From: Candidatus Pacearchaeota archaeon CG10_big_fil_rev_8_21_14_0_10_34_76
GTDB lineage: Archaea; Nanobdellota; Nanobdellia; Pacearchaeales; GW2011-AR1
Assembly (NCBI GenBank): GCA_002763075.1
Contig: PFDB01000002.1
Coordinates: forward strand, 128,286 to 189,970
Length of the DNA stretch: 61,685 nt
Direction of reading: 5' to 3'
Numbering within the stretch: position 1 is the stretch's first letter; each line of letters begins with the position of its first letter. The position numbers and the translations under genes were made by a program. Below the pieces are notes generated by a model. It was not told where the DNA came from, did not search any database, and saw only the letters and a program-made list of their open reading frames with translations. This document shows positions 16,014 to 50,440 of the stretch, piece by piece.

Positions 16014-16217
16014 ACCCCTCCGCGGTTCTAGGAGTCCGGGTAAGAAGATGACACCCCTCCGCGGTTCTAGGAGTCCGGGTAAGAAGATGACACCCCTCCG
16101 CGGTTCTAGGAGTCCGGGTAAGAAGATGACACCCCTCCGCGGTTCTAGGTATTTGCAGAGCAAGCTCCGCATACATCCAACTCTTACGAGTTATATGAGT
16201 CCTGGTAAACAGATGAC
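16014..16217. repeat. 39-bp GC-rich tandem repeat: three perfect units plus one unit interrupted by a 48-bp insert
   Basis: ACCCCTCCGCGGTTCTAGGAGTCCGGGTAAGAAGATGAC at 16014, 16053 and 16092. The fourth unit is split into 16131-16148 and a diverged 16197-16217. Confidence 0.95.
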
Positions 16218-30876: not shown

Positions 30877-31680
30877 CTATAAACTATCAAACGGATTTTG
30901 CACCTTCTTTATTTGATCTGAGGAAATATGGGTATAAATCTGCGTCGTGTTGAGTGATGAATGCCCTAATAATGCTTGAATCATTCTTATGTCTGTTCCT
31001 GCTTCCAATAGGTGTGTTGCAAAGCTGTGCCTTAGTGTATGGGGAGTTACCTTTTTACTTATCTCGCCCCTTTGGCTTGCTTTCTTCACAATTTTCTGGA
31101 TGTTTCTTGTAGTAAGCGGTTTTTCCTTTGAAAATACATAAAGGTTATTTCTTTTTTTAAGATAGTCTTGTATATCTTTGGCGAGATTTTCAGATATTAT
31201 AAATGCCCTGTCTTTAGAACCTTTTCCTTTTCTTACCCACCCTATTTTTTCATCTATATTTAAATCAGAAGTTTTTAGGTTGACAATTTCAGAAACCCTC
31301 AGACCAGATGAATAAAGCAATGAGAGTATGAGGCGGGATTTTTTTGTTTCTGTGGCCTCGATTATTCTTTTTACTTCTTCTTTTGTAAGAACTTCTGGAA
31401 GAGTCTTTGATTTTTTTGGGACTCTCACTGTGCTGAATTCCATTTTAAGAACTTCCATATAGAAAAATTTTAGGGCGGCTGCTGCAAGCATTATTGTATT
31501 TTTTGATTTGGTTTCAAAGAGTGTTGAGAGGTATTCTTTTGCATCTTCTTGTGTCAGTTGATCTTCAGATTTTTTTGAATGTATTAAGAACTTTTGAACG
31601 AAAAAAGAATAGTTCCTTACAGTCATCGGAGAAAATCCCCTCAGTTTTAACTCCATCTTTAGTTTTTCTACATATTCCAT
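30877..31680 (-). CDS. xerA: XerA-type tyrosine recombinase
   Basis: LYSSGLRVSE, GKGSKDR, TPHTLRHSFATH, LLGHSSLNTTQIYT (R-K-H-R-H-Y intact); N-terminal SAM-like domain. Confidence 0.88.
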   Translation of the reverse strand: MEYVEKLKMELKLRGFSPMTVRNYSFFVQKFLIHSKKSEDQLTQEDAKEYLSTLFETKSKNTIMLAAAALKFFYMEVLKMEFSTVRVPKKSKTLPEVLTKEEVKRIIEATETKKSRLILSLLYSSGLRVSEIVNLKTSDLNIDEKIGWVRKGKGSKDRAFIISENLAKDIQDYLKKRNNLYVFSKEKPLTTRNIQKIVKKASQRGEISKKVTPHTLRHSFATHLLEAGTDIRMIQALLGHSSLNTTQIYTHISSDQIKKVQNPFDSL

Positions 31681-35926: not shown

Positions 35927-36286
35927 TTAGCGATTTAAAATATTTGAACCCGTATATCCTAAAGCATAACCCAATCCTAAAAAAATTGATGAGCCGACAA
36001 AACCAAGTCCTGCGCCAACTGCTCTTTCTCCGGTAATAAGGGCGTATTCCATTCCCGTTGGTCTTTGATGATACTTTTCCATTTCGCGTTCTGTATCAGA
36101 GGGGGTTGGGAATGTTATTCCTCCTGTAATTGCGCCTATAAATGGAAACCCGGTCATTAGTGCGTCGTCTAAATAAGTGTCAGTTATTGGAAGTCCTATT
36201 TCTGTGCTTATTCCCTTTGCAAATCCAAATGCAAGTGATACAGTATATGCTGTTCCTAGTCCAATTATTTTTTTTAAATTTCTCAT
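35927..36286 (-). CDS. Hypothetical Gly-rich membrane protein
   Basis: Three hydrophobic Gly-rich segments; start overlaps the upstream stop (ATGA). Confidence 0.65.
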   Translation of the reverse strand: MRNLKKIIGLGTAYTVSLAFGFAKGISTEIGLPITDTYLDDALMTGFPFIGAITGGITFPTPSDTEREMEKYHQRPTGMEYALITGERAVGAGLGFVGSSIFLGLGYALGYTGSNILNR

Positions 36287-36519
36287 TTTCTTGTAACTAG
36301 ATAAAGTGCTCCTAATAAACTTGAGGTATATAATGCGCCTGCGAGAAGTTCTCTTGAATCAAGATTTTCTTTTTTGAAGGATGGTTCTTCTCCTCTGATA
36401 ATTGCGGTCGTTTCTTGGTATGCTTTGTGAAGTTCTGGTTTGAAATTATCTAGTTGGGAAACTCCTAAGGCAATTATGGATATTGCTAAAAGATTTCTTA
36501 TTGGTTTTCTTCTTGTCAT
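36283..36519 (-). CDS. Hypothetical membrane protein
   Basis: Two hydrophobic segments; operon-like spacing. Confidence 0.6.
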   Translation of the reverse strand: MTRRKPIRNLLAISIIALGVSQLDNFKPELHKAYQETTAIIRGEEPSFKKENLDSRELLAGALYTSSLLGALYLVTRK

Positions 36520-36528
36520 GTTAGATGG

Positions 36529-36921
36529 TTAAGAATTTAAAGTGCTCGGATCTGAAGGGGAATATTCCGGAAAAATTATTTTCTTTAGGTATTCGGGAAG
36601 CCCTGACCCTTCTAGTATGTCTCTTATGTCTGGATTAGTCACCGGGTTTTTGGATTCCCAAGAATGTCCCTTTTGATGAAATTCATACCTTCCAACTAGT
36701 TCCCATTTTTCTCCCCTATCGTCTACGTCGTGTCTGATAACGTTTAATTCTTCCTCTGGACCGATGTAACAATTTCCCCTTGGTAAGTTCTTTAAGTCTC
36801 TTTTTTCATGACTGATGGTAAGAAAACAATTTGAAAACCCGTCCTCTCTTCTTTGAATAACAGTATACACTTTTCCTTCACTTGTGATTTCTCCAACGAA
36901 TTTTGTTTCAAGAGTTCCCAT
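36529..36921 (-). CDS. Hypothetical protein
   Basis: 130 aa; preceded by the repeated promoter module. Confidence 0.65.
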   Translation of the reverse strand: MGTLETKFVGEITSEGKVYTVIQRREDGFSNCFLTISHEKRDLKNLPRGNCYIGPEEELNVIRHDVDDRGEKWELVGRYEFHQKGHSWESKNPVTNPDIRDILEGSGLPEYLKKIIFPEYSPSDPSTLNS

Positions 36922-36934
36922 GAAAATTCTTAAT

Positions 36935-36971
36935 TTTTGAAGTTTTTAAATTTATCTTAAAGCGAACTTAT
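36935..36971. repeat. Partial copy of the intergenic promoter module
   Basis: 35/37 identical to 38812-38848. Confidence 0.85.
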
Positions 36972-37007
36972 AGAAAGAGTTAAAAAGAGAAGAAAATAAG
37001 GATTTTT

Positions 37008-37358
37008 ATGACTGATACGAGATATACACCAGAGGGCTTGCCTAGAGTTACAAGAGCAACAATCGAAGAGTACATGAGAAACTATAAAAGAATACACGAT
37101 AGTCTCCAAGTTCCTTATAATGAAATTGCTATGGAAATGAGAAGTGAAATTGCTATGGAAATGAGAAGAGAAAATCCCGAAATAGCCGACTGGTTCGCAA
37201 AGTCTCTGAAAAAAACACCAGCAATGTCAAGAGAGGTATCAATGTCTATGGTTATAGGGGCTAGTATGTTATATGGTTTGCTAAAGGAACAAGCAGAGAA
37301 AAATCGTGATGAGGATGAAAAAGCGAGAGTATCTTTTGAAGGATATCAATTAGAGTAA
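37008..37358 (+). CDS. Hypothetical protein with an internal 24-bp duplication
   Basis: 116 aa; EIAMEMR occurs twice. Confidence 0.65.
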   Translation: MTDTRYTPEGLPRVTRATIEEYMRNYKRIHDSLQVPYNEIAMEMRSEIAMEMRRENPEIADWFAKSLKKTPAMSREVSMSMVIGASMLYGLLKEQAEKNRDEDEKARVSFEGYQLE

Positions 37359-37406
37359 ATTCTTAGGTCTCTAAAACTTTAAATAGATTTGATTATTAAT
37401 TTTGAT

Positions 37407-37568
37407 ATGAAGATCATAAAAGAGAGGTCAAGAACCTATAAGGAACAGGCATATTACAAGTATAAAATAAATATCCCTGAGATGAAATTAGATGATGCAG
37501 GGTTTAAAGAAGGTGATGAATTAGAGTGTGTTGCTGAGAAAGGGAAAATTGTTTTGAAGAGGGCCTAA
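37407..37568 (+). CDS. AbrB/MazE/SpoVT-like DNA-binding protein (53 aa, not in the ORF track)
   Basis: MKIIKERSRTYKEQAYYKYKINIPEMKLDDAGFKEGDELECVAEKGKIVLKRA; TTTAAATA box upstream. Confidence 0.75.
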   Translation: MKIIKERSRTYKEQAYYKYKINIPEMKLDDAGFKEGDELECVAEKGKIVLKRA

Positions 37569-38014
37569 ACAAGTGATCTTAAATCTCTTGGAACGGAGGA
37601 GGGCACTTTTTCTTCGTATTCCGGCTTGCGATAGAGGCCTCTAGGAATACGTAAGCTTTCGAGAACGCGATGATCTCCTGGGAATTCTATCGGCCAAAAA
37701 TCCAAATATCCGAGACAAGATAGTTCGCCTTCTGAAATTCTGAAAGTTTTTTCAGCAAAATCTGAAATAATCTTGGCTTCTTCTGTCGATTTGTGTATTC
37801 CTGGAGTAGAGTAGAAATCATTTAAATGCCTATAAACTCTAGAGAGTATTCGCATTCCAATTAATTCATCGCGTGAAAAAGATTCATTGAATTTTTCAAT
37901 TTTCTTTCTTTCATCTCTATTGCACTCAATCCATCCTTGTTCCCAAGGTTTTTGTGGATTACTCACAAGTCTATGAAAGACAGGTTTTTTGAATGGTTTT
38001 TGATAGGGTATCAT
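37565..38014 (-). CDS. Hypothetical protein
   Basis: 149 aa; preceded by the repeated promoter module. Confidence 0.65.
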   Translation of the reverse strand: MIPYQKPFKKPVFHRLVSNPQKPWEQGWIECNRDERKKIEKFNESFSRDELIGMRILSRVYRHLNDFYSTPGIHKSTEEAKIISDFAEKTFRISEGELSCLGYLDFWPIEFPGDHRVLESLRIPRGLYRKPEYEEKVPSSVPRDLRSLV

Positions 38015-38035
38015 AATTGGTGATAGAGGGGGACA

Positions 38036-38106
38036 TTTTTAAATTTATCTTAATCCGAACTTATCCTTTATGTTGGAAGTTATTGGCGAAAGCTAAAGGT
38101 TTTAGC
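38036..38106. repeat. 71-bp intergenic repeat, copy A
   Basis: 66/71 identical to 38820-38890. Confidence 0.92.
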
Positions 38107-38158
38107 ATGTGAATTCTAGGATAGGAATGGTTAAAAAGAGCGGAAAAGTAAGTTTTTT

Positions 38159-38485
38159 ATGGAATCATTAGATATTGAGATTGGAAAAGTACTTGACAAA
38201 GATTTAGAAAAATCTAGAAAACGAGTTGGGCTTGCTTTAAATTCTAGGATTTGGAAATATTTAAATGCTGTTGTAAGCAATCATGCAAGAAAGATAGAGG
38301 GTCGTGTTAAAGCAAGGTCGGGGATAGAATGTTCTGAATTACGAAGCTATAATGATGCGGTTGATGCATTGGCTCAGTTTGAAAATCTTTTGCAAAGAGA
38401 ATTTCACCTCAGTGTTGGTAGAGTTAATTATGCAATGACCGAAGTCTACAGACAATCTTATTCTGAAAAAAGAGTTCCTGCTTAA
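38159..38485 (+). CDS. Hypothetical protein
   Basis: 108 aa; upstream region resembles that of the 37008 ORF. Confidence 0.65.
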   Translation: MESLDIEIGKVLDKDLEKSRKRVGLALNSRIWKYLNAVVSNHARKIEGRVKARSGIECSELRSYNDAVDALAQFENLLQREFHLSVGRVNYAMTEVYRQSYSEKRVPA

Positions 38486-38543
38486 CCCGAATCTTTCCAG
38501 AGTTCAGTTAATGTATCTTGTGCGAAGTTTTTACGTGTAAAAC

Positions 38544-38798
38544 TTATTTTTGTCTGTAAAATTGAATAGGGTATACTTCTGAAGGAGTTCCCGTGACATC
38601 TTTGCTAATTTTGTATCCTATTACATATGCAACTGCTTCTTGGGGCACGTTTCTTTTTCCTTCAACCGAAAGTTCCCTTCCATCGATTCCTCCATCAATT
38701 TCAATTGCCCAAGTTGGTTTTCCCAAGGCTATTAAATCTGGCCTTTTTGGTATGTCTTCGTCCACTAATCCTTCAAGATTATTAGTCCATTTACTCAT
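38544..38798 (-). CDS. Hypothetical protein
   Basis: 84 aa; preceded by repeat copy B. Confidence 0.65.
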   Translation of the reverse strand: MSKWTNNLEGLVDEDIPKRPDLIALGKPTWAIEIDGGIDGRELSVEGKRNVPQEAVAYVIGYKISKDVTGTPSEVYPIQFYRQK

Positions 38799-38819
38799 TT
38801 TATTATCTTGGTTTTGAAG

Positions 38820-38890
38820 TTTTTAAATTTATCTTAATCCGAACTTATCTGTTATGTTGGAAGTTTTAGGCGTAAGCTAAAGGTTTTAGC
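38820..38890. repeat. 71-bp intergenic repeat, copy B
   Basis: 66/71 identical to 38036-38106. Confidence 0.92.
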
Positions 38891-38894
38891 TAGA

Positions 38895-39056
38895 CTAGAT
38901 TGGTGAGAAATCAACATAAGTTCCTAGGAGTTGTAGAATTCCGAAAATTACTAGGTATAGTCCTACTGCCCATCTTAAGAGCTTTGGAAATATGAGAATT
39001 ACTATTCCAAGGATTATTGCTAGAATTGCTGAGATTGTTAATGAGATTGTAGCCAT
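38895..39056 (-). CDS. Small membrane protein, DUF3096-like (53 aa, not in the ORF track)
   Basis: MATISLTISAILAIILGIVILIFPKLLRWAVGLYLVIFGILQLLGTYVDFSPI. Confidence 0.75.
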   Translation of the reverse strand: MATISLTISAILAIILGIVILIFPKLLRWAVGLYLVIFGILQLLGTYVDFSPI

Positions 39057-39114
39057 GTTTTATTTAGGTGTTTGAAGTTAATAAATCTTGTTAGTGTAAG
39101 TGAAGATGCTATGA

Positions 39115-39405
39115 CTAATGAGAATTAGATCTGTCTGTGAGGAAGTAAGAGGCTATTAGCATTAAAAGAAGGCTAAAAATTGTTATGAAAAATGAGGTGA
39201 GGAAACTTAATGTTGCGGTACCTTGAACATTTATGAATCTTATTACAAAAGACTCTACAACGTCAAAGATAGTTTGTCTCCATGTGAATGCGATTGTGAA
39301 TCCAAGAGCCACTATGATTAATAGACGCAACTGCCTACGGAATTCTTTCTTGAAGTTTTCTCCTCCAATGAAGAATGATTTTGCTTTCTTTTTTATTATT
39401 TTCAT
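39115..39405 (-). CDS. DUF5654-like two-TM protein
   Basis: ALGFTIAFTW motif; resembles the upstream gene. Confidence 0.65.
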   Translation of the reverse strand: MKIIKKKAKSFFIGGENFKKEFRRQLRLLIIVALGFTIAFTWRQTIFDVVESFVIRFINVQGTATLSFLTSFFITIFSLLLMLIASYFLTDRSNSH

Positions 39406-39776
39406 TTTTTCCCTGGTTTATCTGGTGTTTTTGCCCATTTAGAAATAAACATGATACCTATGACGGATATTGCTGTGACTATTATTGCTGTATAAAGATC
39501 TGCAAGATAAGGATATTTTTCTAAAAGCTCACTTGTTTTATGGAAATTTTTGGCTAATTTTGTTATGAGATCTTTCCAAGAAAGCGCTATTATGAAACCA
39601 AACCCTGCCATTATTGCTGTTGATGTGTGCTTTTTGAATTCGGATCCAAATGCAGATCCTCCTTGGAGAACTCTTTTTCTGAGTTTAATTTTTTCTTTTT
39701 GAACTTGTTGTTCAACCTGCTTTTCTACCTCTTTTTTTAGCTCGTCCTGCTGTTTTTTTGTTAAATCTGATGACAT
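39402..39776 (-). CDS. DUF5654-like two-TM protein
   Basis: AGFGFIIALSWKD...YTAIIVT. Confidence 0.7.
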   Translation of the reverse strand: MSSDLTKKQQDELKKEVEKQVEQQVQKEKIKLRKRVLQGGSAFGSEFKKHTSTAIMAGFGFIIALSWKDLITKLAKNFHKTSELLEKYPYLADLYTAIIVTAISVIGIMFISKWAKTPDKPGKK

Positions 39777-39899
39777 TAGTGTTAAGAGATATGAACATTT
39801 TTAATGCTTTCGTAAATATCTTGTGTTTTTTTGATGTTGTGTTGCGTACCGAGAGAAAATTGAATTAAATAAAAAAAATAAAGTTTGTTTTTGTTGGAA

Positions 39900-40046
39900 T
39901 TATTTACCAGTGAAAGCTCCAATTCCGCCTATGAAAGCTAGAATTCCGCCAATTGCTGGAAGAAAGTAGTCGAATCCCCAGAATTGTCCGATGAAAGCTA
40001 CAACTCCACCGATCAGAGCCAACCAGCTTTGCCAATTACCTGCCAT
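39900..40046 (-). CDS. 48-aa Gly-rich two-helix membrane peptide (not in the ORF track)
   Basis: MAGNWQSWLALIGGVVAFIGQFWGFDYFLPAIGGILAFIGGIGAFTGK; strong SD GGAGGTG at 40052-40058; T-rich tract downstream. Confidence 0.8.
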   Translation of the reverse strand: MAGNWQSWLALIGGVVAFIGQFWGFDYFLPAIGGILAFIGGIGAFTGK

Positions 40047-40294
40047 TTATACACCTCCTTTCAAATGGGTTGAATTATCCATTTTATAGAAATTGATGGG
40101 AAAAGTTGTTTAAATATGTTTCTTTTTTCTTGACGATTTTGAGAAACTGCTATTTCTTTTAATCCTTAAAAAAGAAAGAATTAATGAAAAAAATTAGGTT
40201 TTTCGGGCGCAATCGGCGCTTCGCGCCTCAATTTATTGAGGTAATTTTTTCTTGATAGGGGGGGACTTATTTTTAAGTATCTGGAGAGTTTTCA

Positions 40295-40443
40295 AGGGTG
40301 TTTTTGGGTGTTTAAGTGGTGTTTAAGTGGTGTTTAAGTGTGTTTTTTTAATTACCCTCGCTGTTTAGGGGTGTTTAAACAGCTGTTTAAAATAAATCCT
40401 AGGGTGTTTTTGGGTGTTTAAGTGGTGTTTAAGTGTGTTTTTT
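40295..40443. repeat. Helically phased TGTTT / GGTGTTTAAGT iteron-like array
   Basis: Five GGTGTTTAAGT 11-mers in two duplicated blocks; 12 TGTTT cores at about 10.5-bp spacing; central palindrome TTTAAACAGCTGTTTAAA. Confidence 0.92.
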
Positions 40444-40501
40444 ACTACTTTTTTAGGTAAAATTACGAAAGATTTATATACGATAAATCATAGAAATCTA
40501 T

Positions 40502-41140
40502 ATGTTTTGGATATTTAATGGTAAAAAAAGAGTAGAAAATCTTGAAGAAAATACTAAGAGGGGTTTTGAAGAAGTAAAAAAAGATTTTGAAGGTGTTGGT
40601 AAATGGATTAAACACCTAGACAACAGAGATAAACAGCTGTTTGATATTATTCGAGAGATAAAATCAGAATTGTCCTCGATTAATGATGAGGTTGATGGTT
40701 TGAGAGAAGCTCTTTCTTTAATGAATTTTGCCTCTGAGGGCAAACAGCTGTCCAAAAAACAAACAGGTGTTGGTAAACAGATGCCTGTTTATAGTGTTCA
40801 AGAACCTGTCCAAACACCTGTCCAAACAGGCAATTTTCACCAAATTTTGCAGAATTTGAGTGCGAACGAAAGATTGATAGTTCTTACACTTTTGAATGCG
40901 GAAGGAGATATGAAGTTAAGTTATGAGGATATTGCTAAGCTACTCGGAAAAGAGAGATCTACGATTAGAGGGCAAATAAACTCAATAAAACAGAAAAGTG
41001 AGAGTTTAGTATATGAATTAACCGAACCTAATGGGAAGAAAAGAGTGTATATCCCTGAAGAAATTAAAGAAAAACTGCTGAAATACGCGAAAGTGAGAGT
41101 TGGCAATGATAAAAAATCTGAAAAAAAGAGGAAAAAGTGA
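40502..41140 (+). CDS. Coiled-coil + Q/T-rich linker + C-terminal winged-helix protein
   Basis: Heptad-rich N-terminus; LSANERLIVLTLL...LSYEDIAKLLGKERSTIRGQINSIKQK HTH followed by a beta wing (PNGKKRVYI). Confidence 0.8.
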   Translation: MFWIFNGKKRVENLEENTKRGFEEVKKDFEGVGKWIKHLDNRDKQLFDIIREIKSELSSINDEVDGLREALSLMNFASEGKQLSKKQTGVGKQMPVYSVQEPVQTPVQTGNFHQILQNLSANERLIVLTLLNAEGDMKLSYEDIAKLLGKERSTIRGQINSIKQKSESLVYELTEPNGKKRVYIPEEIKEKLLKYAKVRVGNDKKSEKKRKK

Positions 41141-41296
41141 GAGAAAAATGAGAATTTATGGAAAATCTGTAAAAGTGAGTGCTTGGAAGTATGAAAAATT
41201 AGAATTTTTTGATGGAAAAGTGAGTGATATTTTTTATTTTTTGGAAGGAATTGAAAAGTGAGCATAATCATTGTGCAAAAAAATTAAAAAAGTGAG
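40994..41296 (+). repeat. Same-strand (A)AAAGTGAG array
   Basis: AAAAGTGAG at 40994, 41133, 41171, 41216, 41254 and 41288; AAAGTGAG at 41090. Confidence 0.8.
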
Positions 41297-41434
41297 GAAA
41301 AATTGCCTGTTTGGCGTGCAATTTTTCTGATTAGGTGGGCTGAAATAGCCAAAACCGAGCCCTTTGGGGCTTGAGGGGGCTAAATTTGGATTTAGTGTGA
41401 ACCTTATAATTTATTCGGTATAGCGGATAGTCCA

Positions 41435-42181
41435 TTAGAGTGTTCTGAGTTGGTGGATTGTTTCAAGGGTGACTATTTTTCTGAGATCTTTTGAAATTGA
41501 AAGGGTTATCCTTTTGTTGTTTTCCTTAAGTTTATCGACGGGAATGCCTTTTTTAATGAGTCTTAGAACATAATCTCTGATAGAACTTTCTGTTAATTTG
41601 AGTTTTTCTGAGAGAATTGAATAATCGACGATGAATCCTTGTTCTTCTAGTTCGTATATTGTGCTAAATACTTGCATTTCTTGCGAGGTTAATCTTTTGA
41701 ATTTAAAACGAACTTCTTTCTTTAATTCGTCGAGGGATCCTAGAAGTTCTGATGCTCTGTGTATTTGGGTTAAAATGTGGGGTTTTTCTATGTTTTTTGA
41801 GGTTTTTAATGTATTCTCTTGTATTTCTGGCAGTTTTATGTGTAGTTCTGATGTGTTCAATGGTAGATTTTGAGGATTTTTCTCTGTTTTCCAGTGGAAA
41901 TAGGGGGGTTGTCTGTCTGTCTGTTGGTCTGTCTGTCTGTCTGTCGAAACCCCTTCATTTCCAGTGGAGATTGTTGAAATTTGGCTTTTTACGGCTTCTA
42001 GAGACAAATTATGTGTTGGAGTGTCTGTCTTATGTCTGTTGTCTGTCTGTTTCTTTAGTATTTCTGTCTGAATTTCATTTAATTCTTGTATAGTTCGTTT
42101 TAATTCTTGAAGTTCATAGTATAAGAAATCTATATCTTGTCTTGCATTAGCGAAGGCTTCCTTTATTTTGTCTTCCTGCAT
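41435..42181 (-). CDS. Coiled-coil + Q/T/D-rich linker + C-terminal winged-helix protein
   Basis: Heptad-rich N-terminus; LTSQEMQVFSTIY...VDYSILSEKLKLTESSIRDYVLRLIKKG HTH with wing (ENNKRITLSI). Confidence 0.8.
   Translation of the reverse strand: MQEDKIKEAFANARQDIDFLYYELQELKRTIQELNEIQTEILKKQTDNRHKTDTPTHNLSLEAVKSQISTISTGNEGVSTDRQTDQQTDRQPPYFHWKTEKNPQNLPLNTSELHIKLPEIQENTLKTSKNIEKPHILTQIHRASELLGSLDELKKEVRFKFKRLTSQEMQVFSTIYELEEQGFIVDYSILSEKLKLTESSIRDYVLRLIKKGIPVDKLKENNKRITLSISKDLRKIVTLETIHQLRTL
41889..41969. promoter_or_regulatory. Inverted pair of ORB-like boxes flanking a (GTCT)n tract, inside a CDS
   Basis: TTCCAGTGGAAATAGGGGGG (+, 41889-41908) and CTCCACTGGAAATGAAGGGGTT (-, 41948-41969) match the ORBs upstream of cdc6. 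Confidence 0.75.
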
Positions 42182-42264
42182 GGTTTTTTTACTCTTGGAG
42201 AGAATTTAAGGATTTGTGTTCAGAAGAAGTTTATATATATTAAAGATTTTTATATTGCAGAGAA

Positions 42265-42702
42265 ATGGTGACTTTTCGGGGTGTTGAAGCCTTAGATCCT
42301 GATTGTGGTAATGTCTTTATTTATAGGTTTAATGGACATCCCAATTTAAACATGGCTACATCATACAAGGGGTTACTAATTGAATCTTCTGTTTCTCCTA
42401 AAGATATAGCTGTGAATCTAATTCGGTTAGACTGTTGTTTTCCTAATGGGTTTAAGTCTCCTATGGACCGACTTGTCAATGGACCTCCAGATGGGTTAAG
42501 AGCTGATTCTTTTGATGAAATTTTTGATGAGATTGATAGAGATTCAGAATTTTATACGCCTGTCGGTAGGCATTCATTTACACCTATTCCAAAAGAAGAC
42601 TGGGAGACTCTCATCGAAAGGGTTGAATCTGAAAGATATAAAGAGTGGCTTATTAAAAAATTGGGCCCTAGGGGATTTTATTGTGAATTTTCGTTAGGAT
42701 GA
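42265..42702 (+). CDS. Hypothetical protein
   Basis: 145 aa; TATA box upstream. Confidence 0.6.
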   Translation: MVTFRGVEALDPDCGNVFIYRFNGHPNLNMATSYKGLLIESSVSPKDIAVNLIRLDCCFPNGFKSPMDRLVNGPPDGLRADSFDEIFDEIDRDSEFYTPVGRHSFTPIPKEDWETLIERVESERYKEWLIKKLGPRGFYCEFSLG

Positions 42703-42965
42703 TATTTTTTGAAGACGTCGTAGGCCTCATTTGAAAGTCTCCAGCGTTCTCTTCTAATATAATCTAATCCAGAAGAAGACTTCTTTATTTTAACTATAAG
42801 CTTGTTTTTTTCTAAGTCTTTGAGAAGGGCCTTTGTGAATTCTTCATCGCGAATGATTTGTTCTGCGATTTTTGAGGTGAAGTTAGATTCTGGAGATATG
42901 GAAAATAGGTAGTGTAGGATTTGTTCTGAGATTTTGTCTCTTTTAATTTTAGATATTGGAGGCAT
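42678..42965 (-). CDS. Small winged-helix DNA-binding protein
   Basis: EQILHYL...FTSKIAEQIIRDEEFTKALLKDLEKNKLIVKI...RWRL pattern. Confidence 0.7.
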   Translation of the reverse strand: MPPISKIKRDKISEQILHYLFSISPESNFTSKIAEQIIRDEEFTKALLKDLEKNKLIVKIKKSSSGLDYIRRERWRLSNEAYDVFKKYHPNENSQ

Positions 42966-43003
42966 TAAAATAATTGTACTGAGAAGTATTAAAGTTATTC
43001 GGT

Positions 43004-43294
43004 TTAGTAGTTAGGGTTGTGGGTGCCTGGGCCTACGTAAACTGCTAGATCTGCTGCAGTTATTGTGCATGCTCTTTCAATAGCTTCGAAGGTTGGGCGG
43101 GCTGCACGGTCAAGGTCTGTTTCTCTTTCCATTTCTTTTCTGTATTCCTGTGCTTCTGGGCTGTTTGGATTTTCTCTTATATATTTAGATTTTGCAAGTG
43201 CTTTACTAACTAACTGTGCGAGATTGGAGTCATAGCTTCTTTTACGATTTGGATCTCTTTTGTGTGTGGGTGGTAACATTGGATTATAATTCAT
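43004..43294 (-). CDS. Hypothetical protein
   Basis: 96 aa with its own TATA-like box. Confidence 0.55.
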   Translation of the reverse strand: MNYNPMLPPTHKRDPNRKRSYDSNLAQLVSKALAKSKYIRENPNSPEAQEYRKEMERETDLDRAARPTFEAIERACTITAADLAVYVGPGTHNPNY

Positions 43295-43353
43295 TAGTTA
43301 AAAAATAATCTGGAAGTTAATATAATTATCGATAGATATAAATAAATTTGATT

Positions 43354-43644
43354 ATGAAAACATATATGGAAACATCTTTTGGAAGTTTAGAGCCCCTGCT
43401 TGAGCACGAAGGAAAGCTTGTTGCTGAACTGGCTACTTTTCATAAAGAAGGAAGAAGCCATACTCATGATGATTGGGAAATTTGTTATGTTATCAAGGGG
43501 GAAGGAATAATTATTTCTGGAGAAAATAAACATGGAGTGAAGGAAGGAAGTGTTGTACTTATTCCGCCTAAAACTGGACATTGGATGATCCAATCTGGAG
43601 ATAAAGAACTTAAGATTTTGTTGGTTTATTCTAAAAATAGATGA
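43354..43644 (+). CDS. Cupin domain protein
   Basis: HTHDDWEICYVIKGEG...G..VLIPPKTGHW. Confidence 0.88.
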   Translation: MKTYMETSFGSLEPLLEHEGKLVAELATFHKEGRSHTHDDWEICYVIKGEGIIISGENKHGVKEGSVVLIPPKTGHWMIQSGDKELKILLVYSKNR

Positions 43645-43681
43645 GCGGAAGCTTTAAATGTTTAATTTTTCTTAAATTTTG

Positions 43682-43960
43682 ATGGATCCTCTTAAAAGAA
43701 CCTTTGGATATGAAGCATCTAATGAGCTTTATTTTGTGAAAGAAAGAGTTGATTTAGATAGACAGCGGAAAAGATTGTCTAAGAATATGGGAGTTGCTGC
43801 TGGAGTTTTAGTTGGGGGGCTTGTTTTAGGCCGAGTGATGGGAGTATATGATATTTACATTTCTGGAGAGTTTCCTAATGGAGGCATTGTCATAGAATGG
43901 GATCAGGATGGAAAAAGAGATTTTTTAGATAAATTAGATAAAAAACCATTTGAACGATAA
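43682..43960 (+). CDS. Hypothetical membrane-anchored protein
   Basis: One Gly-rich TM segment. Confidence 0.55.
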   Translation: MDPLKRTFGYEASNELYFVKERVDLDRQRKRLSKNMGVAAGVLVGGLVLGRVMGVYDIYISGEFPNGGIVIEWDQDGKRDFLDKLDKKPFER

Positions 43961-43988: not shown

Positions 43989-46604
43989 ATGCTCAATATG
44001 GCTCGGGAAATAACCTTTATGGAAGAGCCTCATGCTGCTGCTGAAGTTAGAAAGATATTACATCCGCTTGTTGCTGAATGGTTTTTTAGGAAATTTGACG
44101 ACTTTTCGCTGACACAGTTGTATGGGGTGAAGACAATATCTGACAGGAAAAATATACTGATAAGTGCGCCTACTGGAGGGACTAAGACACTTACTGCCTT
44201 TCTTGGAATAATAAATTATGTTGTTGGGTTGGCCTTGAAGAATGAACTTGAAGAAAAAATTTATGCAGTTTATGTTTCACCTTTAAAGGCATTGAGCAAT
44301 GATATTTTTGTGAATTTGGAAGCTCCCCTTAGTGAAATTTACGATCTTGCAAAGGAAAGGGGGCTTGAAATGCAGAATATTAGGGTAGGTGTTAGGACTG
44401 GGGACACTACGGTTTCTGAAAGGGCGAAACATGCTAGAAAAGTTCCCCATATTTATGTCACGACCCCTGAAAGTCTTGCTATAGTACTTACTACAACTAA
44501 ATTTGTAGAGAATCTTTCTGCTTTAGAATTCATTATAGTAGATGAGATTCATGCCATGGCAAATAAAAGGGGCGTATATATGAGCTTAACATTGGAAAGA
44601 CTTTGTGAATTAAGTTTGATTGAACCAGTTCGTATTGGACTTAGTGCGACTATTGCTCCTCTTGAAGATATTGCAAGATTTTTAGTTGGAGAAGGAAGAG
44701 ATTGTCTTATAGCAAGGGTAAAATTAATGAAAAAAATTGATATTGGGTTAATATCTCCTGCAAAAGATTTGATTGAAGCAGATAGCATTCAAAGTCAAAA
44801 GGAATTGTATAAGATTTTAGATGGATTAATACAAGACCATAAAACAACTTTAATTTTCACAAATACGCGGGCTGCAACTGAAAAAATAATACATTATCTT
44901 GATTTGCATTTTCCTGGAAAATATAACGAGTTAATTGGAGCACATCATAGTTCTATGAGCAAAGAAAATAGATTTGAGATAGAAAATAAGCTTAGAAAGG
45001 GGGAATTGAAGGTTGTTGTGACCTCTACTTCGTTAGAGCTTGGCATTGATATTGGAAACGTTGATTTGGTTATATTACTGAGATCTCCGAAAGGAGTTGC
45101 TCGAGCATTACAAAGAATTGGAAGGGCAGGACATAAATTACACAGCAATCCTAAGGGAAGATTTATTGTGACTGACCGAGATGATCTTATTGAATGTGGT
45201 GTGATGATGAAAGGCATGATTGAAAATAAGATAGATAGAGTTGATATTCCTAAAAATGCCTTAGATGTCCTTGCGCAGCAGATATATGGTATGGCAATTT
45301 CTAAAATATGGAGGGCTGAGGATATGCTTAAGATGATACGAAAAAGTTATTGTTATGCTGATTTAAGTGAAGAAGATTTTTTTGCTGTTGTTTCTTATTT
45401 GGCAGGGGATTACGCCTTGGAACACAGACACGTTTATGCAAAAATCTGGTATGATGCAACTAGTGGAGAGATTGGAAAGAGAGGAAAGACTGCTAGGATA
45501 ATTTATATGACTAATATTGGGACTATACCTGAAGAGGGTTTTATTTCTGTGGTTATAAGTGCTCCAGTGGAAAAGAGGGGGCAGATTATTGGCAAGATTG
45601 ATGAAGCCTTCTTGGAGAAGATGAAAAGAGGAGATGTGTTTGTTTTAGGAGGACATAAATATCAATTTATTAGAAGTCAGGGCATGAAGGCTTATGTTAT
45701 TGCAGATGTTTCTAAAAGCCCCACCATACCTTCTTGGTTTAGTGAAATGCTTCCATTAAGTTATGATGTTGCTATTGAAATCGCTAAATTTAGAAGACTT
45801 GTTAAGGAGAAGATAGAAAATAAGAAGAAAACTTTAGATTTTATCAAGGAATATTTGTATTGTGGAGATATTGAAGCAGACCAAATGTATGATTATTTAT
45901 CTGAGCAAGCGAAATTTAGTGAAATCCCTACAGATAAAGAATTGATAGTTGAAAAATTCAAAAGTGATAAAGAATATTTGTTGTTTCATAGTATGTATGG
46001 GAGAAGAGTAAATGATGCTCTTTCTAGGGCGTATGGGTTTGCTGCTGCAAGATTGAAACATAGAGACATTGAAGTAGGAATAAATGATAACGGATTTTAT
46101 CTTGCTGGGGAGAAGCTTGATGAAAATAAAATTTTAGATTGGGTGAAGGCAAAAGACCTTGAATTAATATTAAAAGAGGCTATAGAAACAACTGATGTTT
46201 TAAGAAGAAGATTTAGGCATTGTGCTTCAAGAAGCTTGATGATATTAAGAACCTATAAAGGAAGAAGCAAGACTGTTGGAAAACAACAAATGCATTCTCA
46301 TTTCTTGTTGGCTGCTGTTAGAAAAATAAGTAATGAGTTTCCGATCTTACAAGAAGCAAGGAGAGAGGTATTTGAAGACGTGATGGATATACATCGGGCT
46401 AAGGGAATTTTGAAAGATATAGAGAATGGAAAGATAAAAGTAAAAAAAGTTAGGACGCCATTGGTTTCGCCGTTTGGATTGAATTTAATATTACAAAGTC
46501 ATGCTGATTTAATAAGAATGGAAGAAAAACTGCAATTTTTAAGGAGAATGCATAAACTTCAAATGGGCATTATTGAAAGCAAAGAAGGAAATGGGAAGGA
46601 ATAA
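43989..46604 (+). CDS. lhr: ATP-dependent helicase Lhr (archaeal Lhr-core)
   Basis: SPLKALSND, RTGDT, TTPES, DEIH, LSAT, HHSS, SLELGIDIG, QRIGRAGH, IGTIP, IPSWFSE. Confidence 0.95.
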   Translation: MLNMAREITFMEEPHAAAEVRKILHPLVAEWFFRKFDDFSLTQLYGVKTISDRKNILISAPTGGTKTLTAFLGIINYVVGLALKNELEEKIYAVYVSPLKALSNDIFVNLEAPLSEIYDLAKERGLEMQNIRVGVRTGDTTVSERAKHARKVPHIYVTTPESLAIVLTTTKFVENLSALEFIIVDEIHAMANKRGVYMSLTLERLCELSLIEPVRIGLSATIAPLEDIARFLVGEGRDCLIARVKLMKKIDIGLISPAKDLIEADSIQSQKELYKILDGLIQDHKTTLIFTNTRAATEKIIHYLDLHFPGKYNELIGAHHSSMSKENRFEIENKLRKGELKVVVTSTSLELGIDIGNVDLVILLRSPKGVARALQRIGRAGHKLHSNPKGRFIVTDRDDLIECGVMMKGMIENKIDRVDIPKNALDVLAQQIYGMAISKIWRAEDMLKMIRKSYCYADLSEEDFFAVVSYLAGDYALEHRHVYAKIWYDATSGEIGKRGKTARIIYMTNIGTIPEEGFISVVISAPVEKRGQIIGKIDEAFLEKMKRGDVFVLGGHKYQFIRSQGMKAYVIADVSKSPTIPSWFSEMLPLSYDVAIEIAKFRRLVKEKIENKKKTLDFIKEYLYCGDIEADQMYDYLSEQAKFSEIPTDKELIVEKFKSDKEYLLFHSMYGRRVNDALSRAYGFAAARLKHRDIEVGINDNGFYLAGEKLDENKILDWVKAKDLELILKEAIETTDVLRRRFRHCASRSLMILRTYKGRSKTVGKQQMHSHFLLAAVRKISNEFPILQEARREVFEDVMDIHRAKGILKDIENGKIKVKKVRTPLVSPFGLNLILQSHADLIRMEEKLQFLRRMHKLQMGIIESKEGNGKE

Positions 46605-48699: not shown

Positions 48700-49180
48700 A
48701 TTGTTGGCACCCTCACCCTATCATTTCCACTGGAAAAATCATAAAGGTTTAAATATAGAGGAGGAAATTCATTTCTTCTTCTTTTCTTTTATAAATATAT
48801 ATATATTATATTATATATATTATATTATTAATATTTAAATAGTATATATTAAAACAAAGCATATCAAAGTATTATATATTAAAATGACCAATATTAAAAT
48901 CCTATGACTTTTGATATTAATAGTTCTTTAATCTCTTATTTTAAAATTTTAAATATTAAACTTTTATAGCATTTCATTAAATGATTTATTTACTCTATTT
49001 AACATTTTTATTAAGATTTTAGTGTGGTTGTTCGTTAATGTTCGTTTAACGCAACAATAATATATTTAATTAAACAGAGACTCCAGTGGAAACGGGGGTG
49101 TGTGTGTTTTTAATAAAATATGACTTTTTTTATAATTTTTCCTCCTGATTTAAATATTTCCATTTGAAATAAAGGTTAAA
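48700..49180. other. oriC: Replication origin oriC: ORBs flanking an AT-rich unwinding element
   Basis: 685-bp non-coding gap upstream of cdc6. ORBs TCCAGTGGAAATGATAGGG (-, about 48716-48734), CTCCAGTGGAAACGGGGG (+, 49081-49098) and a weaker TTCCATTTGAAATAAAGG (49158-49175). Pure A/T tract at about 48790-48840. Confidence 0.88.
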
Positions 49181-49231: not shown

Positions 49232-50440
49232 ATGACGGTCAAATTAAATAAAATATTCGATTCTATAGCTGGAAATATAATTTTTCGTGATAAAAGTGTT
49301 TTGCAAATAAACCATACGCCTGGATCGATACCACATAGAGATGAACAAATCGAAGCAGTTGCGTCTATATTGGCGCCTTCGCTAAGGGGAGATAGAGTAA
49401 GTAATTTATTTGTTTATGGAAAGACTGGAACTGGAAAGACACTATGTGTGCAATATGTAACAAATGAAATAAGCAAAAGGGTAAAGGAAACCGGAGAGGA
49501 CGTCTTAAAGGTAATATATGTTAATTGTAAGTTGAAAAAGGTAGCTGATACAGAATATAGGATATTAGCTGAAATAATAAATCGACTAGGGGGAAGTGTC
49601 CCAGCGACAGGCCTTCCCACAGATAGCGTTTATAATAAGTTTATTGAATTAATTGATGGGAAGAAACAAGTAATATTAATTGTTTTGGATGAAATAGACC
49701 AGGCTGTAAAGAAAATATCTGATAGTTTTCTCTATACCCTAACAAGATTGAATTCGGAGCTGAAAAATGCACAAATAAGTATTGTCGGAATAAGTAACAG
49801 CTTAACATTTATGGATGAACTAGATCCAAGAGTTAGAAGTTCGCTTGGAGAGGAAGAACTTGTATTTCCTCCATATAATGCATTACAATTGCAAGAAATA
49901 TTAAAGAAAAGAGCAAGTGAGGCCTTTAATGAAGGCATTTTAAGTGAGGGGGTTATAGCAAAGTGTGCTGCCTTTGCAGCAAGAGAACATGGGGATGCAA
50001 GAAGAGCTCTTGATTTGTTGAGGGTTGCTGGAGAATTAGCAGAAAGGTCGGGAATAAAAAAATTGGATGTTGTTAGAATCGACGAAGCAAATAGTAAAAT
50101 AGAAAAAGATAAAATGCTAGATATTATAGAAAGTGAGCCTAAACAGTTTCAACTTGTACTCTTTGCTATTATGAGTCTGAGCCAAGATGAAAAAATGAAT
50201 AAGATCTTTACTGGAGATATTTATAATAAATATGAAGAAATATGCAGAAAGACAAAGAACGAGGCACTTACACAAAGGAGAGTGTCAGATATCGTTGCTG
50301 AGTTTGATATGTTAGGATTAATAAATGCTAAGGTGGTTAGCAAGGGAAGACAAGGACGAACGAGAGAAATAAAATTGATGCTTCCTGAAAATGTTCGCAA
50401 TAAGGCAAGAGAAATATTGATAGAATCATTGAATTTATGA
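49232..50440 (+). CDS. cdc6: Orc1/Cdc6 replication initiator
   Basis: IPHRDEQI, YGKTGTGKT, VLDEID, LDPRVRSSL, FPPYNA, HGDARRALDLLR, C-terminal winged helix. Confidence 0.97.
   Translation: MTVKLNKIFDSIAGNIIFRDKSVLQINHTPGSIPHRDEQIEAVASILAPSLRGDRVSNLFVYGKTGTGKTLCVQYVTNEISKRVKETGEDVLKVIYVNCKLKKVADTEYRILAEIINRLGGSVPATGLPTDSVYNKFIELIDGKKQVILIVLDEIDQAVKKISDSFLYTLTRLNSELKNAQISIVGISNSLTFMDELDPRVRSSLGEEELVFPPYNALQLQEILKKRASEAFNEGILSEGVIAKCAAFAAREHGDARRALDLLRVAGELAERSGIKKLDVVRIDEANSKIEKDKMLDIIESEPKQFQLVLFAIMSLSQDEKMNKIFTGDIYNKYEEICRKTKNEALTQRRVSDIVAEFDMLGLINAKVVSKGRQGRTREIKLMLPENVRNKAREILIESLNL

Follow-up and report, generated by a model that had tools for sequence, protein, structure and literature searches.

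A helically phased TGTTT array beside a winged helix-turn-helix gene near the replication origin of a Pacearchaeota genome, a candidate cooperative docking platform

A window of 61,685 nt from the genome of Candidatus Pacearchaeota archaeon CG10_big_fil_rev_8_21_14_0_10_34_76 (contig PFDB01000002.1, positions 128,286 to 189,970; this whole stretch is meant by "the window" below) contains an array of twelve TGTTT boxes upstream of a gene for a protein of 212 amino acids (aa) with a predicted winged helix-turn-helix (wHTH) fold, here called P0001. A first-pass annotation of the window had described the array as helically phased and taken it for the loading site of the adjacent wHTH protein. That it is a selected, phased element tied to this gene is borne out by its uniqueness in the genome, by its presence in all 96 relatives compared and by frozen codons at further boxes inside the gene. 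We interpret the array as a cooperative docking platform, or super-operator, for P0001, possibly shared with the product of the convergent neighbouring gene, P0002; judged from the sequences compared, we hold this reading to be slightly likelier than all others together. The array and the gene behind it comprise the following features:

40295-40347, plus strand: block A, five TGTTT boxes 10-11 bp apart, including three copies of GGTGTTTAAGT (from the sequence, a repeat finder and a script)
40360-40392, no strand assigned: array core, with the boxes at 40362, 40372 and 40384 and the palindrome TTTAAACAGCTGTTTAAA, invariant in a five-genus alignment
40401-40443, plus strand: block B, four TGTTT boxes at 40405, 40415, 40426 and 40436; 40401-40435 copies 40295-40329
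40466-40480, plus strand: putative archaeal promoter, a CGAAAG resembling the B recognition element (BRE) followed by the TATA-like ATTTATATA (from the sequence and the positions in homologues)
40502-41140, plus strand: P0001 gene, an open reading frame (ORF) for 212 aa with helix, linker, wHTH domain and basic C-terminal helix

The array sits in a 455-bp spacer between an ORF for a 48-aa membrane protein on the minus strand and the P0001 ORF on the plus strand. Both reading of the sequence and a script place the twelve TGTTT starts at 40299, 40309, 40320, 40331, 40341, 40362, 40372, 40384, 40405, 40415, 40426 and 40436, exactly as first annotated, with gaps of 10, 11, 11, 10, 21, 10, 12, 21, 10, 11 and 10 bp. 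The best period is 10.6 bp with a resultant R of 0.971, a value equalled by none of 5000 random layouts of twelve boxes, which upholds the helical phasing claimed at the outset. Tandem Repeats Finder reports the unit GGTGTTTAAGT 3.6 times at 40307-40345 and 2.6 times at 40413-40440, on either side of the 18-bp perfect palindrome TTTAAACAGCTGTTTAAA (40374-40391) that lies in the array core, and the 35 nt at 40295-40329 recur as an exact copy at 40401-40435. The earlier description of two duplicated repeat blocks around a palindrome is thereby reproduced.

Such clustering is confined to this locus within the genome assembly scanned (914,002 bp in 21 contigs, 88% complete), and the genome-wide check of uniqueness came out clearly in favour of the array. 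It holds 12 TGTTT in a 150-bp window, where the runner-up of the whole genome holds 6, and 8 GGTGTTT, where the runner-up holds 1. Within our own window GGTGTTT occurs 20 times against 6.6 expected (shuffle maximum 13, n=100), and 8 of the 20 lie within 40297-40430. A position matrix built from the boxes of relatives gave nine genomic matches of at least 15.8 bits, eight of them inside the array, and the same scan found no second box cluster elsewhere in the genome. Support from reads, which the annotation had left as a possible point of failure, is mixed: Logan contigs from three DNA runs (X1, X2, X3) cover the array in pieces without any sequence difference, but they are interrupted at the exact 35-nt duplicate, so that none of them spans the entire array, and an independent spanning contig is absent for the copy number of the 11-mer in block A.

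The array is likewise present in relatives. Our homologue set comprises 119 distinct loci; arrays were counted in the 96 that reach a protein identity of 48% or more and come with 400 nt of upstream sequence. All 96 carry 4-16 TGTTT on the gene strand (median 8), compared with medians of 2 for the reverse word AAACA and 3 for the control word TTTGT in the same upstream DNA, and the boxes lie mostly at -210 to -60 of the homologous gene. Pooled distances between box pairs peak at 10 bp (133 pairs), 21 (125), 32/33 (60/72), 43 (86), 53 (66) and 64 (59), with troughs of 9-14 counts between the peaks. The same periodicity upstream of homologues, which the annotation had left to comparison, was thus recovered as a pooled phase of about 10.6 bp running through six turns, so helical phase is a conserved property rather than a by-product of the recent duplication in this genome.

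In an alignment of five genera, two boxes, the palindrome and the next box are invariant, and the outer blocks differ in copy number. In 42 of 76 loci the core palindrome is found between -160 and -141, and it shows no sharp helical register to the ATG (R 0.48-0.58). Among 18 distant orthologues, 17 have 0-3 upstream TGTTT; inspection by eye of 20 loci from eight further families of the order shows 1-4 of the same boxes retained beside the promoter in 10 of them, and all four loci of one family (f5) have no upstream boxes. Comparison of these sequences suggests that a small ancestral operator was likely enlarged into a phased array in the present family.

Other short boxes accompany the arrays. 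A near-palindromic TTATCGACGATAAA box stands upstream of them in many relatives (loci L005-L017 and L026-L032) and is degenerate in the window near 40350-40362, and the similar CGACGGAAA stands before the BRE. A conserved box of about 22 nt, GTGCACTWAGGTTAGCTTAGT, is found 150-250 nt upstream of the ATG in a number of relatives (L011-L021, L025, L026, L028, L051) and is absent from the window; the changes in its arms (GCAC/GTGC, TACT/AGTA, GAAC/GTTC) look compensatory.

The product of the gene behind the array is predicted to have a DNA-binding wHTH fold. Its AlphaFold model (mean predicted local distance difference test score, pLDDT, 70.9) consists of a helix at residues 2-83, a disordered linker at 84-110, the wHTH domain at 112-183 and a basic C-terminal helix, with a pLDDT of 78-91 over residues 121-190. 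Foldseek returns only generic wHTH regulators (MepR, MarR, ArsR/SmtB, AbfR2; E 1.6e-4 to 5e-3), and the ESM Atlas only Nanobdellota clusters that are unnamed or called "HTH type 11". No family of Pfam, NCBIfam or PHROGs is reached at its cut-off, with sub-threshold helix-turn-helix (HTH) or sigma-r4 matches only, and Pfam and NCBIfam give no ParB-family match. P0001 has one match each in 50 of the 61 genomes of the order, including all 13 high-quality ones; homologue records belong to Pacearchaeota, Woesearchaeota or Nanoarchaeota, and none of 2965 database relatives bears a functional name. The N-terminal peptide MFGWLFGKK is conserved.

The TATA-like ATTTATATA begins 29 nt before the P0001 ATG. 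Its position is general: of 118 homologue loci, 88 have the first base of TTTWWAW at -30 or -29 and 102 have it within -32 to -27, and a box stands between TATA and ATG in 35 of the 96 relatives. From this spacing the mRNA is probably leaderless or near-leaderless, which would place the array just upstream of the predicted promoter. A scan for bacterial promoters gave 7 sites against 6.9 expected, a result that is irrelevant for an archaeon. An RNA gene in the array was likewise considered and rejected, the Rfam search at permissive thresholds over 39000-42500 having returned a chance microRNA-like match only (E 0.27).

The boxes continue into the coding sequence, in two places in particular:

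40631-40642, no strand assigned: intragenic palindrome AAACAGCTGTTT at +130 of the gene, coding for K-Q-L-F (from codon comparison in homologues)
40742-40830, no strand assigned: box cluster in the DNA for the linker (KQ.. and VQT repeats), with AAACAGCTGTCC, AAACAGGTGTT, AAACAGATGCCTGTTTA and two copies of CCTGTCCAAACA (from the sequence)

Genome-wide, AAACAGCTGTTT is found at two sites only, the array core and the K-Q-L-F codons of P0001. Among 116 homologues anchored on the peptide WIKHL, 56 have KQLF, and 54 of these 56 encode it by exactly AAACAGCTGTTT, where codon usage (CTG supplies 6% of Leu and CAG 34% of Gln codons) would lead one to expect about 1%. The palindrome is retained even where the amino acids change, KQVF being written as AAACAGGTGTTT and KHLF as AAACACCTGTTT; the substitutions thus track the degeneracy of the DNA motif, all three peptides retaining AAACASSTGTTT. 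In the VQT repeats, Gln is CAA in 100% of 254 cases (pooled 66%), Thr is ACA in 94% of 261 (pooled 47%) and Val is GTT or GTC in 99% of 261 (pooled 64%), and the codon ahead of the unit ends in T in 255 of 262 units. These frozen codons yield SSTGTYCAAACASS once every 12 bp. In the VQT frame TGTTTAAACA, the form seen upstream, would introduce a stop codon, and TGTTCAAACA is the closest version compatible with coding. Synonymous resampling of the 119 ORFs points the same way: the 359 observed copies of AAACASSTGT compare with 21 on average and 37 at most over 200 resamplings, and the 252 observed copies of TGTYCAAACA with an average of 11.9. The intragenic boxes persist in class-level orthologues without an upstream array.

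Because the upstream boxes are conserved and the intragenic codons are frozen, these comparisons indicate selection at the DNA level from about -210 to +330 of the P0001 gene. We infer that the target is double-stranded DNA rather than RNA, as the 12-bp palindrome is perfect and the upstream copies lie outside the predicted transcript. The locus is an unusually clear case of coding DNA that doubles as predicted protein-binding DNA, which is relevant to the interpretation of conserved "disordered linkers" and to models of codon usage.

In the docking-platform reading, eight to sixteen boxes of the form (G)GTGTTT(A/T)A would be displayed on one face of the helix around the AAACAGCTGTTT core, just upstream of the predicted BRE/TATA promoter, and would form with the intragenic boxes of the first 330 nt a single binding field, about 550 bp long, on both sides of the promoter. 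The likeliest binder would be P0001 itself, possibly joined by P0002, because the boxes hug the P0001 promoter and run through its ORF, because the protein is predicted to be of wHTH type and because no other cluster exists. In particular, the specific sites lie at the protein's own predicted promoter and are conserved together with the gene, and a single box cluster per genome is as expected for a self-directed site. P0001 may dimerise through its long N-terminal helix, the 30-residue linker might give the wHTH domains enough reach for adjacent boxes on one face, and these domains could then load cooperatively onto successive boxes; the expected top motif of the true binder would be (G)GTGTTTAA / AAACASSTGTTT. 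The immediate effect would be feedback on P0001 transcription together with one large nucleoprotein complex a few kb from the replication origin (oriC). The minimal function would be feedback at P0001's own promoter, the direction of regulation being presumed.

Several observations weigh against this reading. Archaeal repressors usually bind at the TATA box or the transcription start, whereas in the window the final box of the array extends to 40440 and the BRE begins at 40466, a gap of about 25 bp, and the core palindrome lies 110-130 bp upstream of the TATA box, which argues against a plain operator. P0002 (98 of 99 relatives) and a 95-aa winged-helix (wH) ORF (90 of 99) are equally conserved neighbours of wHTH type. 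A search for covariation of box and recognition helix over 20 loci of eight other families revealed no link, both being unchanged, and four families of the class have kept the gene and its intragenic boxes with the upstream array absent. Furthermore, a regulator with its own gene as its only strong site would be odd unless the complex has a further role.

Downstream of the array the locus contains a second DNA-level motif, origin recognition boxes (ORBs) and the origin itself:

40995-41297, plus strand: seven AAAGTGAG boxes, of which three fall within the 3' part of the P0001 gene and the other four within the convergent spacer
41435-42181, minus strand: P0002 gene, a convergent paralogue of 248 aa with helix, long disordered linker and wHTH domain (from the model and synteny)
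41888-41908 (plus strand) and 41949-41970 (minus strand): two canonical ORB boxes with inward-facing G-strings in the linker DNA of P0002, around (ACAG)n at 41910-41945
48709-49105, upstream of orc1/cdc6: canonical oriC, with inverted ORBs at 48726-48737 and 49082-49092, outward G-strings and an AT-rich stretch between them

P0002 is a distant paralogue and its gene is convergent with that of P0001 in nearly all of these relatives; the pair persists at class level, and the model of P0002 consists of a helix at residues 2-47, a disordered region at 48-135 and a wHTH domain at 136-247. The AAAGTGAG motif is likewise frozen in coding DNA, K-V-R being coded by AAAGTGAG(A/G) in 100 of 103 homologues, with 176 occurrences against 16.2 on synonymous resampling of the 119 ORFs; it recurs downstream in relatives with a median of 3 per 490 bp, compared with 0 for the reversed word. 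The ORBs of P0002 encode PPYFHWK and ISTGNEGV within its disordered linker. In the ORB coding for STGNEGV the synonymous sites are kept in 104 instances (TCC in 100, GGA in 104, GGG in 101). The dyad TCCANTGGAAA occurs at six places in the genome, five of them between 41890 and 49082, and two of these in the P0002 gene. One of the six is held by an ORB-like box, TCCAGTGGAAAAGAGGGGG (45563-45581, plus strand), within an Lhr-type helicase gene (43989-46604). At 40259-40265 seven consecutive G follow GATA and look like the G-string end, at 41903-41908, of an ORB; this stretch is without the TCCANTGGAAA dyad and is seen only in this genome.

The sole orc1/cdc6 gene of the genome lies at 49232-50440 and is followed by the genes for both PolD subunits (DP1, DP2). 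The AT-rich stretch of the origin upstream of it includes TA repeats at 48790-48851. The array is 8.3 kb from this oriC, and the nearest TCCANTGGAAA to the array is at 41890. None of the six genomic TCCANTGGAAA places lies in 40295-40443; with a textbook origin 8.3 kb away and no ORB of its own, the array is not the origin. Linkage to the origin is nevertheless strict: in all 32 genomes in which the P0001 homologue and cdc6 share a contig, a compilation by eye places the homologue on the same strand as cdc6 and 3-17 kb upstream of it; in 17 further genomes they are on different contigs. GC skew stays positive along all 190 kb of the contig, turns neither at oriC nor at the array, and is uninformative. 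Pfam finds no Rep, ParA, ParM or TubZ-type gene among the 37 neighbouring ORFs (ParM and TubZ were not searched genome-wide), and the only CbiA/AAA_31 matches, of ParA/MinD type, are on contigs C1 and C20.

Further elements were observed in the window. A GC-rich hairpin (GGCGC TTC GCGCC) with a second hairpin and a T-run at 40207-40252 stands out in a genome of 34% GC. Several genera (L007, L008, L030, L031) have kept this element, and it draws extra contigs of other organisms in the DNA runs, with a depth of 375 compared with 104. A second copy lies on contig C1 (G000:C1:43587, minus strand) beside a ACCGACGATAAA box; no Rfam family matches the element, and its second locus gave a sub-threshold small nucleolar RNA match only. 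A perfect 39-bp tandem repeat is present in 3.5 copies at 16014-16149, and related units with GTTCTAGGAGTC form arrays on contigs C5 and C19 and also occur beside the hairpin in L007. A gene for a XerA-like tyrosine recombinase (30877-31680, minus strand) is followed, in the region 36000-43960, by small orphan ORFs before the conserved wHTH module; most of these ORFs (orf145, orf96, the cupin gene, orf93 and orf84) stand beside homologues at 0-1 of 99 loci. An origin from a virus or plasmid was considered and rejected, as the 17-mer core occurs in five IMG/VR contigs as isolated single matches, with no arrays and no P0001 homologue.

The lone self-target, the strict linkage to oriC and the adjacent ORBs keep a centromere-like or origin-accessory role in play. 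It is possible, although we consider it unlikely, that the array is mainly structural, an origin-proximal module of this kind for which transcriptional feedback would be a by-product. Array, boxes in both wHTH genes and the ORB pair would then nucleate a complex that positions, tethers or segregates the origin or modulates Orc1/Cdc6, and the binder could be the same as in the docking-platform reading. The position upstream of cdc6 in the 32 shared-contig genomes is consistent with this, as is the single box cluster per genome, and five of the six TCCANTGGAAA fall between 41890 and 49082, with the two in the P0002 gene kept synonymously; the MFGWLFGKK peptide and the helix of about 80 residues, as modelled, might suit a tether. 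Binding of Cdc6/Orc1 to an ORB cluster within the dp1 gene of Thermococcales (PMC1904270) offers a parallel. Such a role is less easily reconciled with the lack of an encoded partition NTPase at the locus, the ParA/MinD-like genes being on C1 and C20 only, or with an array that itself is without ORB; moreover, in small genomes the synteny by itself may reflect gene order passed down by descent, and the GC skew is silent on origin use. A more specific proposal, equally tentative, is a single nucleoprotein module near the origin, confined to these DPANN archaea and with the array as its visible end, in which two convergent coiled-coil wHTH proteins and Orc1/Cdc6 assemble on sites that lie largely in the DNA coding for their own linkers, and which acts as a centromere-like tether or a regulator of initiation. 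TGTTT boxes would then belong to one gene, ORBs and (ACAG)n to the other, and AAAGTGAG to the space between. If this were true, linker peptides such as the VQT repeats and STGNEGV would be conserved as translated binding sites and not for a role in the protein, and the coupling of Orc1/Cdc6 to wHTH proteins would add a new layer to archaeal origin biology.

We regard it as rather doubtful that the array serves a different binder, be it P0002, the 95-aa wH protein or an unlinked regulator, as an upstream enhancer or silencer. Both neighbours are as tightly linked to the array as P0001 is, and at least three DNA-level motifs at the locus (TGTTT, AAAGTGAG and ORB) suggest several binders. The boxes, however, are in and upstream of P0001 and not P0002, lineages without the upstream array still retain them inside the P0001 orthologue, and for a general regulator the lack of any other genomic box cluster would be unusual. 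That the array is a second replication origin of the iteron type is very improbable. Its two blocks of phased direct repeats, the AT-rich stretch that follows and the ORB boxes 1.45 kb away resemble such origins, but no Rep-type initiator is adjacent, P0001 having weak HTH matches only, and the genome has one orc1/cdc6 gene with a textbook origin at 48709-49105, in which ORBs flank a DNA unwinding element; the AT-rich stretch is the predicted promoter of the gene at a fixed distance from the ATG, and in sister families the array is down to 0-4 boxes. Just as little credence is due to the view that the array acts by intrinsic curvature alone, or that it is a neutral recent tandem duplication or an assembly artefact. 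Bending of the DNA would be expected from T3-T7 runs phased at 10.6 bp, the exact duplicate of 35 nt is of recent date, and no contig spans the entire array. Against this stand the conserved G-G-T-G flank and palindrome, which go beyond T-runs, the word frozen in coding DNA at a 12-bp period, where curvature phasing does not apply, the arrays in 96 of 96 relatives and the identical pieces from three independent runs.

To our knowledge, control of chromosome replication and segregation in DPANN archaea is essentially unstudied, and we know of no centromere or accessory origin factor in this group. Supplementary files aside, no literature on the TGTTT motif, the P0001 protein or the locus was found. 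The locus offers a concrete pair for such work, a single-copy protein with a predicted DNA-binding fold that occurs order-wide and a unique phased site cluster near oriC.

The annotation had likened the array to the parC and tubC centromeres of plasmids and to iteron origins. parC/ParR of plasmid R1 and tubC/TubR of pBtoxis are type II and type III partition centromeres, respectively, and TubR is a wHTH protein. As in these systems, short direct repeats about one helical turn apart form two blocks around a core, and the array stands directly upstream of the gene for a small, here predicted, DNA-binding adaptor, for which cooperative loading and autoregulation would be expected. The locus described here, by contrast, is chromosomal, single-copy and in a core-gene neighbourhood; it has no ParM, TubZ or ParA gene, P0001 contains a long coiled coil, no relation of it to ParR or TubR is detectable, and the boxes continue into coding sequence. 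Of the original comparison, helical phase upstream of the gene for a predicted DNA-binding protein stands, and kinship does not, given the absence of an NTPase or Rep gene among the neighbouring ORFs, the single-copy core gene on a chromosome and an oriC 8.3 kb away. The analogy may therefore hold for a possible working mode; it fails for membership.

Operators of wHTH regulators of the MarR/MepR, ArsR/SmtB and Lrs14/AbfR2 types provide a second comparison. The C-terminal fold of P0001, as modelled, matches these proteins, a dyad site lies near its own promoter, and in sister families 1-4 boxes abut the BRE/TATA. Unlike in such operators, there are twelve phased boxes over 140 bp rather than one dyad, the core is 110-130 bp upstream of the TATA box and extra sites are frozen into the ORF; P0001 itself reaches no Pfam or NCBIfam cut-off for these types. 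In chromosomal ParB/parS systems parS lies within or beside parB near oriC, and AspA of the Sulfolobus plasmid pNOB8 is a wHTH protein whose spreading starts at a site lying upstream of the gene that encodes it. Our locus shares with them the proximity to the origin, a site at or in the gene of the putative binder and one cluster per replicon, but no ParB- or AspA-like domain is detected in P0001 and no ParA gene is adjacent.

Two published archaeal cases bear on sites tied to an origin. UBP of Sulfolobus is a beta-rich saddle protein of 111 aa with hundreds of sites, and its ucm site lies inside oriC1 (PMC12141716). It offers a conceptual parallel, a non-initiator DNA-binding protein with a specific site tied to origin function; P0001, in contrast, is of predicted wHTH type and has one site cluster per genome, 8 kb from oriC. 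In Thermococcales, Cdc6/Orc1 binds ORB and mini-ORB sites clustered within dp1 (Matsunaga et al. 2007, PMC1904270). Here too, initiator-type sites are found inside a gene few kb from oriC, as P0002 contains two ORBs; the TGTTT boxes are not ORBs, and, unlike dp1, the host genes encode predicted DNA-binding proteins, with the sites located in the DNA for disordered linkers. Among published cases, the dp1 cluster comes closest as a precedent for binding sites that lie within a gene near oriC.

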